DNA from: a virus
Lineage: Duplodnaviria > Caudoviricetes
Length of the DNA: 37,262 nucleotides
Strand: one strand, 5' to 3'
IMG/VR virus record: IMGVR_UViG_3300027533_000056
Location: 1-37,262 of that record
Part shown: piece by piece, positions 30,527 through 34,264 of the stretch
Layout of the letters: each line of letters begins with the position of its first letter
How positions within the stretch are numbered: position 1 is the stretch's first letter
The notes under the pieces: model-generated
What the model was told of the DNA's origin: nothing
Seen by the model: the letters and a program-made list of their open reading frames with translations, nothing else
The model's database searches: none
Program-made: the position numbers and the translations under genes

Positions 30527-32695
30527 ATGCTGACAAATAATGAAATCCGTGGCGAGTTTCAGGAAAATTACCGATATGCCCATGATTACTGGGCTCCTTT
30601 CAATAAGGATGCTCAGGTCTATACATTAGCCGCTTCTGGTTATACCTGGAGTGATGATGAGCGTCGTAGTCTGATAAAAGAAGGCCGAGAGCCTTTAGAA
30701 TTCAACATCATTCGCCGTCCTCTTCAGTTCTTCTCTGGCTACCTTCGCGATAATATCAACGAAATCATTTATTCTCCAGTCGAGGGCTCGGACCAGAAGA
30801 CAGCCGATCAATTTACGAAGCTTTCCTATTACATATGGGATAAGGGCTTAGGCTTTCCTACTTTCTTAGATGCTTGTGATGAATCTTTCAAGTCTGGGAT
30901 CTCTCTCTGTGGTATCCAAATGGATTACTCCAAAGACTTTGTCAATGGAGACATTTCCTTTTTCAAAAGGACCTATAATTCATTTTATCTTGATCCTACC
31001 TTTACAGAAATTTCTCTTCGAGATTGTTCTTTTGCAATCACTCGGGATCTCATCGATAAGCAATATGCAAAACAATTGCTACCATTCATTGATCCTGAAG
31101 AAATCGATAGTCTTTCCATGGGTTATCGCGATGATAAATTCATGCAATATCATCCGGAGTTTACCACGTTTTCTCGGAACCGGAATCTGATTGCTTACGA
31201 TCAATATTATAAGCGTGTGACTCGTGAAAGAAAGTTCCTCGTTGACATGGATTCCTCCTATTACCGAGACATAACCGATCTTCCAAATGAAGAGATTAAG
31301 AAGCTGAAGTTTGGCATTAGACGTTTTAATGAAATGAGAGACAATGCCGAAGAGTTGCAAATAGACGAATCAGAGATTCCTAATATTGAGATTCGCGATG
31401 TGAATCGCAGCTTCATTGAGCTGAATATATTGCTCAATGGCCATCTTCTTTATTGCGGAGATGACAAAACTGGAATCAATAAAACATATCCATTTGTTCC
31501 CATCGTTTGCTACATGGAACCATCGATATGGATGCCATCTCAACGTATCCAAGGCATAGCTTCTTGCAATTGGAGTGCTCAACGTCAATTCAACAAACGC
31601 CACATGAAGATTGTGGACATGATGGATTCAGATATATCGACTGGGTTTAAATACCTGATCGGTTCTGTTCCTGACCCTCAAGACCTTCAGCAATCTGGTC
31701 AAAACAAGATCATTGGTGTTGACCCCGAGAATGCTCCGCAAGGTCTTGATTCTGTACAACAACTAAGTGGCGGGGGAACAAATCCTGCTCTTATCCAATA
31801 TCAGCAGGTTTTAGATCAACTGACTTTAACTCTTTCCAATGTCAATGAAAGCTCCATGGGGATTGATGACAAAGGAAATACGCAAATATCTGGTCGTTTA
31901 GCACAAGTGCGTATTGCACAAGGTCTTCGTGGAAATCGTAAGATCTTTGACAATGTCGAAACTTCCCAACAGATCCTCGGAGGACTCATCCTGACGGCAA
32001 TTCAAGAGCATTATCCTCCAGGAAAAGTAGAGCGCATTTTAGCCGAAGAGCCTACAGAACAATTCTACGAGCAAGAATTCGAACAATACGATGCAGTAAT
32101 TAAAGAAGGGGTACGTTCTAAATCTCAAAAGGATGCCTACTATTATGAACTGGTTAATCTCAAGCGTGATGGTATTGTGGACGTTCCTGAGTCAGAAATT
32201 GTGCGTTCTCTTTCAATGGCGGGGTTAAGCGATCTACAAGAAGCGATTGAAGCACAAGATAAGCAAAAATCAGATCAGCAGAAGAAGATTGATGAGCAAG
32301 AAAGAATGGCTCTAGAGCTTGGAAATGCTCATAAAGAAGAGATGATTGCTATGGCTCAATCTAGACGAGCTGATGTAATTAGCAAAAACGCCCTCGCCGA
32401 GGAAAGAGTTTCAGAGGCATCGGAAAATCGTGCCCAAGCAGCATTGGCAAGAGCTAAGACTATAGTTGAAATATCAAGTATGAATGAAGATCGTATCTTA
32501 AAAGTTCTAGATTTTGTCAATTCACTTGAATTACAAGAAAGACAAGATCAGGAAAATGTATCGCAAAAAGTATTCAATAAAGCCGATGCGATTAATACAG
32601 AGACTCAAGGATCAGCGGAAAATATTCAACTCACTCAGTCTTTAGCTTCTCAACAAGCTCCCATGTCGAACGAGAGTGGGGAGGGAGCAATCTGA
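30527..32695 (+). CDS. Portal protein (P22-like)
   Basis: 722 aa; GYTW...GREPLEFNIIRR, YPFVP, Q..FNKR and SG.....R...G motifs; C-terminal coiled-coil barrel. Confidence 0.88.
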   Translation: MLTNNEIRGEFQENYRYAHDYWAPFNKDAQVYTLAASGYTWSDDERRSLIKEGREPLEFNIIRRPLQFFSGYLRDNINEIIYSPVEGSDQKTADQFTKLSYYIWDKGLGFPTFLDACDESFKSGISLCGIQMDYSKDFVNGDISFFKRTYNSFYLDPTFTEISLRDCSFAITRDLIDKQYAKQLLPFIDPEEIDSLSMGYRDDKFMQYHPEFTTFSRNRNLIAYDQYYKRVTRERKFLVDMDSSYYRDITDLPNEEIKKLKFGIRRFNEMRDNAEELQIDESEIPNIEIRDVNRSFIELNILLNGHLLYCGDDKTGINKTYPFVPIVCYMEPSIWMPSQRIQGIASCNWSAQRQFNKRHMKIVDMMDSDISTGFKYLIGSVPDPQDLQQSGQNKIIGVDPENAPQGLDSVQQLSGGGTNPALIQYQQVLDQLTLTLSNVNESSMGIDDKGNTQISGRLAQVRIAQGLRGNRKIFDNVETSQQILGGLILTAIQEHYPPGKVERILAEEPTEQFYEQEFEQYDAVIKEGVRSKSQKDAYYYELVNLKRDGIVDVPESEIVRSLSMAGLSDLQEAIEAQDKQKSDQQKKIDEQERMALELGNAHKEEMIAMAQSRRADVISKNALAEERVSEASENRAQAALARAKTIVEISSMNEDRILKVLDFVNSLELQERQDQENVSQKVFNKADAINTETQGSAENIQLTQSLASQQAPMSNESGEGAI

Positions 32696-33410
32696 TGATT
32701 TTAAATATTTCTAGAGACTTTTTAATTGGTATTCCTCTTCTACCAGAAAGATGGTGTATACGCATATGACAACTTCTACAAACAGTTATAAAATTGCTGT
32801 TAGTATTATTTCTCTCATTACCATCGATATGGTGTATATCTGTTTTTCCAATCTTATCGCAGATCTCGCATTTATTAGATCTCGTTTCTCTAGACATATT
32901 TCTAAACCAGCCATGTCCATGTTTGTAATTAGGAGAATTTTCTTTTTTGCAAAACGAACTATAGCAAGTTTTGGAACAAAATCTTCCCCTTTTGTTTTTT
33001 TCTTCAGAAGGTGCTACAAGAAATTCCTTATTGCATGCTTCGCAAAAATGAGTTTTTCTTGTTTTTTGATTCTTATAGAAACATGGAAGAGAACAATAAC
33101 CGCGATTGGAATGTTTAAGTCTAGATTCAAGAAATTGAATTTCAATTCCGCAAGTTTTGCAGTTAGTAGTAATTCTAGGAACTTCAAGGGCTTTGTTAGC
33201 ACATTTTTTAGAACAAAAGCATTCTTTTTGATTTTTAATTCTATGTGCTGCTATTTGAAAAAATGCTTCACATATTCTACATTTAAGAATGCTACTAGTT
33301 TTTTTGAATTCATACTGGCAAATTGTAGAACAGAAAAGATGTTTGTGCTTTTTAATTTTATAGGGATAAGTTTCAAACGATTTATCGCACTTGGCACAAT
33401 GAACAATCAT
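32631..33410 (-). CDS. HNH homing endonuclease with four CxxC...(F/Y)CSxxC repeats, antisense to head operon
   Basis: CEIC...DIHHIDGNERNNTNSNFITVCRSCHMRIH. Confidence 0.9.
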   Translation of the reverse strand: MIVHCAKCDKSFETYPYKIKKHKHLFCSTICQYEFKKTSSILKCRICEAFFQIAAHRIKNQKECFCSKKCANKALEVPRITTNCKTCGIEIQFLESRLKHSNRGYCSLPCFYKNQKTRKTHFCEACNKEFLVAPSEEKNKRGRFCSKTCYSSFCKKENSPNYKHGHGWFRNMSRETRSNKCEICDKIGKTDIHHIDGNERNNTNSNFITVCRSCHMRIHHLSGRRGIPIKKSLEIFKIIRLLPPHSRSTWELVEKLKTE

Positions 33411-33431
33411 AGACTAGAGTATAGTTTATGA
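32766..33431 (+). other. Open in-register antisense ORF across HNH gene, ATGA-coupled at both ends
   Basis: Stop-free from 32715 to 33428; ATG 32766 overlaps the stop of mini-ORF 32695-32769; its TGA overlaps ATG 33428. Confidence 0.5.
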
Positions 33432-33676
33432 ACGAATTTAAAACAAGAAAAACGAGGTATTTTATGGCCTACGATAAAGGCAAATTAAATGGTGGCGGAA
33501 AGTTTATGGACAACGGTGTTGGAATGTGTTCATATAAAAAGTCGCCAATGAGTGCTGCAAGCCGTGTTAAACCAGAATGCGGACCAACGAGCAATGCAGA
33601 TGGCCAAAAAGCTAATAAGCTATTGCAAAAAGCACAGAAGCAACAAGATAGCTTAAGGGGGATGAGTGGGATGTGA
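33428..33676 (+). CDS. Small basic head-operon protein (second start at ATG 33464 with GAGG SD)
   Basis: Lies between the two HNH inserts. Confidence 0.65.
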   Translation: MNEFKTRKTRYFMAYDKGKLNGGGKFMDNGVGMCSYKKSPMSAASRVKPECGPTSNADGQKANKLLQKAQKQQDSLRGMSGM

Positions 33677-34225
33677 TTTGTGATGTTTAAGATGGCAACT
33701 GCGACACAAAATAATCAAATTAGAAATGTCATTATTAAGACGATTATGATCTTTATGATGTACATCCATGTATTTCTTTATTTTATTGCAGAAAGTACAT
33801 TTTTTAGAAAAATTAGAGTAAGCAATTTCTCTATATCTTCCTATTCCATGTTTATAATTACTGTCTTGTTTTCCTCGTGGTTGAGATTTATTACTACAAA
33901 TGAGAGAACAAAATTCTTTTTTAGAATATTTTGCTCTAGATTTTGGAAAACTAAAATCTTTTCCGCAAAATTTGCATTGCCTAGTGATTTGCGCATTAAG
34001 CTTGATAGCTTTATATCCGCATTTTGTAGAACAACTAATTGTTTTACTTTTAGACAATCGGAAAATTGCAACAGAAAATTTATTGCCACAATGACAAGTC
34101 AATTCAACTTGTTTTTTCTTAAACTCAGTAGCACATTCAAAAGAACAAAAAAGATTTTTATATTTTTTTGTCTTCCAAAGTTGAGTCTTAAAAACTTTAT
34201 GACAAAAAGCGCAATTGATTTCCAT
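33653..34225 (-). CDS. HNH homing endonuclease with three Zn-finger repeats, antisense to head operon
   Basis: CTFC...DVHHKDHNRLNNDISNLIILCRSCHLKHH; paralogue of 32631-33410 (shared NYKHG.G). Confidence 0.9.
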   Translation of the reverse strand: MEINCAFCHKVFKTQLWKTKKYKNLFCSFECATEFKKKQVELTCHCGNKFSVAIFRLSKSKTISCSTKCGYKAIKLNAQITRQCKFCGKDFSFPKSRAKYSKKEFCSLICSNKSQPRGKQDSNYKHGIGRYREIAYSNFSKKCTFCNKIKKYMDVHHKDHNRLNNDISNLIILCRSCHLKHHKSHPTHPP

Positions 34226-34264
34226 ATGCAACATGATGACACACGCGAGGTATTATGTCTGTAG
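33680..34264 (+). other. Open in-register antisense ORF across second HNH gene
   Basis: Starts 3 nt after the stop at 33676 (TGA TTT GTG ATG) and ends overlapping ATG 34255. Confidence 0.5.

Follow-up and report, generated by a model that had tools for sequence, protein, structure and literature searches.

The stretch of DNA analyzed here, hereafter the window, comprises all 37,262 nucleotides (nt) of the viral record IMGVR_UViG_3300027533_000056 (Caudoviricetes), and our attention centers on two genes, HNH1 and HNH2, that lie backwards in its head-gene region on either side of a conserved small gene termed s70 (Table 1). A chain of linked open reading frames (ORFs) runs across both insertions on the plus strand, which also carries the portal and capsid genes; we refer to its two long members, which lie opposite the HNH genes, as relay ORFs 1 and 2. 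A preliminary description of the window had proposed that this chain is coupled all the way from the portal gene to an ATG at 34255, and every link could be located where it had been placed. The stop codon of the portal gene (TGA, 32693-32695) overlaps the ATG at 32695 that opens a 24-codon ORF (32695-32769), the terminal ATGA of which (32766-32769) starts relay ORF 1 (32766-33431)—a frame that contains an extra ATG at 32751 and is free of stops from 32715. Relay ORF 1 itself ends in an ATGA (33428-33431), leading into an ORF (33428-33676) that had been listed as a further link; its coordinates hold, but it is no mere filler, as the conserved s70 gene starts within it at ATG 33464. The stop of the s70 ORF is followed by TTT and then by the GTG at 33680 of relay ORF 2 (a 3-nt gap), which overlaps the start of a gene encoding a 131-amino-acid (aa) protein (ATG 34255) by 10 nt. 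The s70 gene is found in insert-free and filled alleles, with a mean column identity of 65% across 12 homologues.

Both relay ORFs are in codon register with their HNH genes, such that TTA, CTA or TCA codons in the nuclease would read as stops in the relay. The in-register frame on the late strand is open over 232 HNH1 codons and 186 HNH2 codons, and the codon bias reported for the leucine residues proved accurate: all 8 Leu codons in the open stretch of HNH1 are CTT, and all 10 in HNH2 (11 of 11 when counted from the first Met) are CTT, TTG or CTC. Likewise, none of the 19 Ser codons in the open stretch of HNH1 is TCA, and the single TCA of HNH2 corresponds to the stop codon of the upstream gene. 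Open runs of this length rarely arose when the nuclease genes were resampled synonymously, as had been anticipated: the observed run was reached in 0 of 20,000 (HNH1) and 1 of 20,000 (HNH2) trials with the codon usage of all genes, and in 5 and 1 of 20,000, respectively, with that of the structural genes—corresponding to p values of at most 2.5e-4 (HNH1) and 5e-5 (HNH2). None of 36 other window genes gave a p value below 0.019 under the same resampling.

To broaden this view, we gathered insert candidates by sequence similarity or cysteine pattern, blind to the openness of any frame, which yielded 24 distinct HNH inserts in antisense orientation, distributed over five sites and in most cases sharing 24-69% identity with the two genes of the window. 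Across the zinc-finger and HNH body (trimmed to its untruncated part in L164), these inserts contain 3 in-register stops in 4,057 codons, whereas the other two frames have 243 and 373; no in-register stop at all is present in 21 of the 24, and the remaining 3 have one each. In the 25 antisense genes (one being a near-duplicate), TTA and CTA account for 2 of 205 Leu codons and TCA for 1 of 298 Ser codons, as opposed to 80 of 125 and 30 of 120, respectively, when 13 co-oriented nuclease genes from these phages are counted. At a site occupied in both orientations, the antisense insert (L021) has no stops in 161 codons, whereas two sense inserts have 2 and 7 in 191. A tRNA or codon preference can be excluded as the cause, because CTA, TTA and TCA do occur in the tails of these same HNH genes, immediately beyond the relay; other phage genes also use the three codons freely.

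The dependence on orientation, an expectation of the preliminary description, was borne out in a second sample consisting of HNH relatives on other contigs (80 retained of 214 viral and 80 of 260 metagenomic matches). With contexts called from ORF length only, and with two groups set aside, 22 HNHs of mixed or unclear context (of which 5 were open) and 8 lying inside long ORFs (none open), an opposite frame free of stops across 80% or more of the body was present in 12 of 17 antisense but only 3 of 50 co-oriented genes (Fisher p 4e-7, not corrected for kinship); one of these 3 open 'co-oriented' cases, L110, turned out to be antisense on inspection. Many of the open antisense HNHs on other contigs belong to a clade with separate support, whose members lie ahead of a small basic gene in other phages, and one insert (L192) has its relay in another frame, coupled at both ends (GTGA in, TAATG out). 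Taken together, an open frame over antisense HNH genes is confirmed, far beyond chance, in more than 30 inserts of independent sequence, with controls for both orientation and frame. As a separate observation, related HNH domains occur in frame inside same-strand ORFs of over 800 codons in L094 and L122, possibly as inteins.

We then asked which of the two overlapping products is under selection, using single-base changes in five independent pairs of inserts (57-98% identical; 181 codon pairs with multiple hits were dropped from the antisense set). The ratio of nonsynonymous to synonymous change (omega) was 0.13 for the HNH proteins, indicating purifying selection, and 1.66 for the antisense product—compared to 1.27 and 1.29 for the opposite frame of two co-oriented controls, in which the nuclease itself scored 0.19 and 0.11. 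Of the single-base changes that are silent in the HNH, 194 change the relay protein, yet a relay stop is never gained or lost; in the controls, 9 and 48 HNH-silent changes make or remove stops in the opposite frame. Synonymous divergence in the pairs amounts to about 0.47 per site without any stop having arisen, and even in the closest pair (L108 and L116) 12 of the 14 single-base changes are silent in the HNH gene and alter the relay. The relays also vary in architecture: in L047 the relay is split into ORFs of 58 and 148 codons joined by ATGA, in L026 it ends early and is followed by mini-ORFs, and in L164 it is truncated and continues into a duplicate portal tail. In L020 the HNH gene carries a nonsense codon and the relay is intact (a single contig, and possibly an error). 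When the best chain was traced through 23 of the 24 inserts (L021 was left out, and the start of L199 was set 3 nt early), the largest untranslated gap did not exceed 25 nt in 21 of 23 cases, with a median of 4, against medians of 47-119 after synonymous recoding. These patterns argue that the frame is selected and that the sequence of its product is unconstrained.

Table 1. Features of the head-gene region of the window (positions in nt from the first letter of the window).
Feature	Position	Strand	Evidence or remark
Portal gene, upstream host gene	30527-32695	+	Pfam P22_portal 2e-47, phrog_156
HNH1, free-standing HNH endonuclease, 259 aa	32631-33410	-	phrog_1271 7.7e-24
24-codon linker ORF	32695-32769	+	TGATG-coupled to portal stop, ATGA-coupled to relay ORF 1
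Relay ORF 1, 221 codons, HNH1 register	32766-33431	+	no Pfam/PHROG match
Predicted HNH1 sigma70-type promoter	33418-33446	-	TTGTTT-17-TATACT, 7 nt before ATG 33410
s70 ORF including 12-codon in-frame extension from ATGA 33428	33428-33676	+	
Conserved small gene s70, 70 aa	33464-33676	+	own GAGG 33454-33457
HNH2, free-standing HNH endonuclease	33653-34225	-	Pfam HNH_3 26.8 bits (cut-off 24.8); phrog_1271 3.7e-19
Relay ORF 2, 194 codons, HNH2 register	33680-34264	+	no Pfam/PHROG match
Predicted HNH2 promoter	34233-34261	-	CAGACA-17-(TG)-CATCAT, 7 nt before ATG 34225
Conserved 131-aa gene	34255-34650	+	
Putative scaffold	34690-35346	+	position only, no family match
N4-gp56-family major capsid protein	35361-36293	+	TIGR04387 161.9 bits (cut-off 60); phrog_1357

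The two backward genes share 37% protein identity. HNH1 contains repeated CxxC zinc-finger-like modules, and its catalytic motif (H193, H194, N206, C211, C214, H215 and H219) is invariant in 14 relatives; HNH2 likely starts at 34225, in a frame that is open from ATG 34234. Both genes are intergenic, with intact, stop-terminated genes on their flanks—the last 21 codons of the portal gene overlapping the 3' end of HNH1—and the inserts as a group are 482-898 nt long. Searches of the structure atlas and the PDB returned only generic HNH matches. An intron as carrier was rejected, as no Rfam intron match exists in positions 30000-35500, and an intein was likewise rejected, given the lack of a Hint match and the stops at both ends of the relay ORFs. 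Judged by sequence, HNH1 and HNH2 agree with free-standing HNH homing endonucleases in every feature that could be tested, and they represent HNH endonuclease cassettes that are likely homing elements.

The inserts appear to bring their own promoters. A -10 hexamer located 5-9 nt before the HNH start matches the consensus at 4 or more of 6 positions in 16 of 23 inserts and at 5 or more in 11 of 23, compared to 76 and 6 of 390 background ATGs and to 3 and 0 of 12 co-oriented genes, respectively. A TTG is often present at -35, and the -10 element of HNH2 (a 4/6 match) is weaker than that of HNH1. This geometry predicts an own promoter and a leaderless mRNA for most inserts. In three cases, the predicted promoter is overlapped by an inverted repeat (L050:1875-1920, minus strand; L086:3895-3945, a near-perfect palindrome; and L071:6137-6175, minus strand), and these repeats are possibly autorepression operators.

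Comparison with relatives (the best 80 of 169 capsid-related loci and 80 of 118 s70-related loci) revealed how these sites look with and without an insert. The gene order is portal, s70, 131-aa gene, scaffold-like gene and capsid; among 81 distinct s70 alleles, the portal/s70 junction (site A) is empty in 55 of 73 measurable alleles, with 13 antisense HNH genes and 5 other inserts in the rest, and the s70/131-aa gene junction (site B) is empty in 68 of 75, with 5 antisense HNH genes and 2 other inserts. Empty junctions are tight: 59 of 68 alleles have a gap of -1 to +5 nt between the s70 stop and the start of the 131-aa gene, and 33 of 55 have one of -14 to +3 nt between portal and s70. Where the portal end of empty alleles was inspected, 16 of 17 portals terminate in Gly-Gly-stop, codons that place a GGAGG 1-2 bases before the s70 start. 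The portal C-terminus of the window differs from this pattern, and most filled alleles have a changed portal C-terminus—often ending in ATGA, GTGA or TGATG—with a GGAGG-like motif often back at the far end of the insert. In L071 the relay ends in the old portal tail, and portal tails are duplicated in both L164 and L071; together with the altered C-termini, these could be at most indirect traces of cleavage of the empty allele and spread by gene conversion. Linker ORFs resembling the 24-codon ORF of the window are present in L020, L050, L086, L164 and L026.

Pieces of flanking genes are also found duplicated beside inserts, e.g., portal tails in L164 (3818-4594) and L278 (about 2790-3000), and in L166 and L084 the old start of a small basic gene lies upstream of the insert and a recoded copy downstream; such duplications suggest insertion within a gene end followed by rebuilding of the junction. 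Site A of L054 (4609-6733) is occupied by a 2.1-kb insert of several small basic genes together with an ORF of 164 aa on the minus strand, which does not encode an HNH protein and lacks a full relay.

Drawing from these observations, the rarity of such frames under resampling and their dependence on insert orientation support the earlier proposal that selection keeps ribosomes on the late mRNA. The relay frame is very probably translated, and not for the sake of its product; that it keeps the downstream genes expressed, by preventing polarity and by handing over ribosomes, is likely as well, if less firmly so. The HNH gene would be transcribed from its own sigma70-type, mostly leaderless promoter, and could sit backwards for this reason. 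No terminator-like site was found on the plus strand between portal and capsid, nor any conserved internal sigma70-like promoter (a 10/12 site at 34405 on the plus strand occurs in only 2 of 55 alleles, and the region as a whole scored at chance level, with 16 promoter or terminator candidates found and 15.0 expected); the late transcript would thus have to cross the insert. Untranslated RNA is reported to invite Rho (excerpts of PMC12548453), and the late RNA polymerase would be exposed to Rho termination on 0.5-0.9 kb of ribosome-free antisense sequence. Without an open frame, coupling to s70 and the 131-aa gene would also be lost, such that only inserts with an open and linked frame would persist.

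An in-register frame would be cheap and its starts free, because the HNH His codons CAT and CAC read ATG and GTG on the other strand. The Cys-His pair TGT-CAT becomes ATG-ACA and thereby includes the ATGA overlap, so that the nuclease codons themselves may supply a start for the relay; the plus-strand start at 32766 is indeed the reverse complement of the conserved Cys-His codons of HNH1. With starts provided in this manner, just TTA, CTA and TCA would need to be avoided. As a side effect, late transcription backed by ribosomes would damp the converging HNH transcript. In E. coli, a synthetic ORF running through mCherry in antisense is reported to increase long read-through transcripts 6.5-fold and to repress the converging transcript about 38-fold (excerpted text of 10.1101/2020.09.23.310730). 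On a wider and more tentative scale, which we regard as somewhat short of an even chance, the inserts could represent widespread 'stealth' homing cassettes—backward, with their own leaderless promoter and an overprinted, throw-away ORF started by Cys-His codons of the nuclease—that avert polarity and have their nuclease shut off by collision with late transcription, and that have arisen more than once, in more than one frame and phage group.

Several observations weigh against this reading. Firstly, there are antisense nuclease-like genes that lack a relay. The HNH-like gene at 10251 in the window had been listed among four co-oriented control genes, an assignment that holds for the other three (439-1065, 12064-12687 and 29352-30329; six nuclease-like genes in 37 kb) but not for 10251, which is on the minus strand, antisense and without a relay (12 stops). 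This gene (phrog_374) belongs to a three-ORF cassette (9320-10964, minus strand) between plus-strand virion-region genes, of which one other copy, L326, was found among the loci around gene 11236; the plus strand across the cassette is strongly C-rich (C/G 1.88). A relay is also absent from antisense genes in L084 (a related phage; 10 stops), from the nuclease-like genes of L228, L190 and L158, and from a zinc-finger ORF between terminase and portal (L090:4743), and the segD gene of phage T4, where 224 codons contain 9 in-register stops, likewise lacks an open frame on the opposite strand. Among the inserts with a relay, L278 contains one mid-insert stop and a 48-nt gap between ATG/GTG codons, and L022 has a 36-nt gap at its end. 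Secondly, HNH lineage is partly confounded with orientation, and the 118-row HNH tree, from a quick search, is poorly resolved. When synonymous recoding was repeated with new stops banned, the resulting chains were equally tight (P 0.27-1.0), which means that the tight junctions are not independent evidence, and the enrichment of TGT-CAT as the source of ATGA is marginal (19 of 25 inserts versus 31 of 60 controls, p 0.053).

Further points bear on hand-over and on Rho. Both junctions in the window carry GAGG, and s70 has its own Shine-Dalgarno sequence in 70 of 81 alleles, so that ribosomes may not have to be strictly handed over. With an overall C/G of 1.1, the inserts resemble a Rho site only weakly on their late strand, and the two window inserts (0.96 and 1.06) are similar to the portal gene (0.95). 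Phage-specific late promoters would be missed by a sigma70 scan. Finally, a search of GTDB genomes returned as sole matches phage contigs in two unrelated metagenome-assembled genomes (MAGs), one of Bacteroidales and one of Parcubacteria, both contigs probably being mis-binned.

Part of this evidence would suit selection for translation across the insert on mainly other RNA-level grounds than Rho polarity or hand-over: prevailing in head-on polymerase collisions with the HNH promoter, shutting down the nuclease at late stages of infection, or protecting the late mRNA against nucleases or against pairing with the HNH transcript. The converging promoter in most inserts, their weak resemblance to Rho sites and the frequent Shine-Dalgarno sequences of downstream genes are in line with this idea, as is the repression of a converging gene by ribosome-coupled polymerase in E. 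coli (excerpts of 10.1101/2020.09.23.310730). We nevertheless consider such a cause unlikely: by itself it leaves unexplained that relays end at the next start codon and that empty junctions are tight, and the collision effect in E. coli, according to the same excerpts, itself acts via protection from Rho.

It is far less probable still that the antisense products are functional hydrophobic proteins, e.g., nuclease inhibitors or membrane proteins, an alternative that the preliminary description had offered. The ORFs are long and have plausible starts, some with an upstream GGAGG (L026, L050 and L086), and in-register changes are often conservative, which blunts the omega test. However, omega for the antisense product is not below that of the controls, the relay changes between L108 and L116 are at odds with a conserved protein, and a functional product is disfavoured by relays that are split, truncated or off-register, by the lack of family matches and by the pLDDT of 0.33 of a structure-atlas model covering part of relay ORF 1. 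The product is hydrophobic because the Lys codon AAA becomes the Phe codon TTT when read from the opposite strand. Finally, the notion that the frame has no current function—reflecting HNH codon or tRNA preference, strand composition or descent from an ancestor inside a coding gene or intein, an origin made conceivable by published inteins with antisense endonucleases (excerpts of 10.1101/2025.01.02.630785) and by the partial confounding of lineage and orientation—is the least probable of all, since the HNH tails and other phage genes use CTA, TTA and TCA, only one frame is purged, and the stop-free divergence of the pairs largely refutes it.

Selection for translation of the relay thus remains our preferred explanation, and its phage setting can be outlined as follows. 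The window encodes a P22-like portal, an N4-gp56-family capsid protein, a large terminase, and ERF and YqaJ recombination genes; no RNA polymerase was seen among 30 window proteins scanned, and no close cultured phage was found (the best capsid match being 24%). The 439-type nuclease gene is optional in relatives, at a fixed site after a 253-aa gene. One relative, L002, equals the window sequence over both HNH genes, as far as covered, and downstream, with about 25 differences clustered within s70 (33560-33680)—a small patch of recombined sequence flanked by the two inserts. The gap of about 40 nt that separates the 131-aa gene from the scaffold-like gene (34645-34690) contains an apparent stem-loop (CGTAAG...CTTACG, identified by eye) directly upstream of the ribosome-binding site; it occupies the same position in L005, L006, L017, L020, L052 and L071, and its arms co-vary. 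The scaffold of P22 is autoregulated, and the stem-loop could be a site for translational control of the scaffold gene.

The closest known counterparts each share only part of this arrangement. Like the seg and mob genes of phage T4, the inserts are intergenic, optional phage nuclease genes with filled and empty alleles, although of the HNH type. In the excerpted text of PMC2988022, all T4 endonuclease genes are co-oriented save segD, which lies antisense between genes 23 and 24, flanked by terminators and with no identified promoter of its own; the inserts described here share with segD an antisense position within head genes, but they are routinely antisense and come with a predicted promoter and a relay frame. 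Mycobacterial MIRUs (Supply et al. 1997, as cited in excerpts of PMC12548453) are mobile inserts at gene junctions whose ORF is joined at -4 to the gene that follows, a coupling proposed to minimise harm to downstream expression. The inserts likewise carry an ORF coupled to a downstream start (ATGA at 33428; 10-nt overlap at 34255). MIRUs are short repeats, whereas the relays span 0.5-0.7 kb in single-site cassettes of diverse sequence and are overprinted antisense to a nuclease gene under purifying selection; by analogy, the relay would work like a MIRU ORF but is not a MIRU.

Non-canonical inteins with an antisense homing endonuclease (LAGLIDADG or VSR-like), as described in excerpts of 10.1101/2025.01.02.630785, also place the nuclease opposite a frame that must stay open, and the product over the nuclease has no recognisable structure. 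Their open frame belongs to the host polypeptide and is spliced out, whereas the relay is a separate intergenic ORF with no splicing domain that may be split or off-register. The synthetic convergent constructs of E. coli, according to the excerpts cited above, similarly place an ORF antisense to another gene, with better read-through and repression of the converging gene; in contrast to those plasmids, the arrangement described here is natural and apparently selected. No description of relay frames over free-standing antisense endonucleases was found in open-licence papers and preprints, and the relay would appear to be a new combination of known ideas.

These findings point to a clean natural example of a long frame that is selected because it is translated and not for the protein it yields—with controls built in, namely empty sites, sense insertions and the two other frames. 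They carry a warning for annotation, as a long antisense ORF opposite an HNH gene may be real and under selection without encoding a functional protein. The system also offers a one-base test of the weight of transcription-translation coupling in phage late operons, and scans for frames purged of TTA, CTA and TCA could map co-transcribed gene blocks in uncultured phages. If true, our interpretation would account for the backward entry of selfish genes into essential, tightly coupled operons in the absence of splicing, and the more tentative 'stealth' cassettes would constitute a third route to limiting damage to the host, besides the splicing of introns and inteins.

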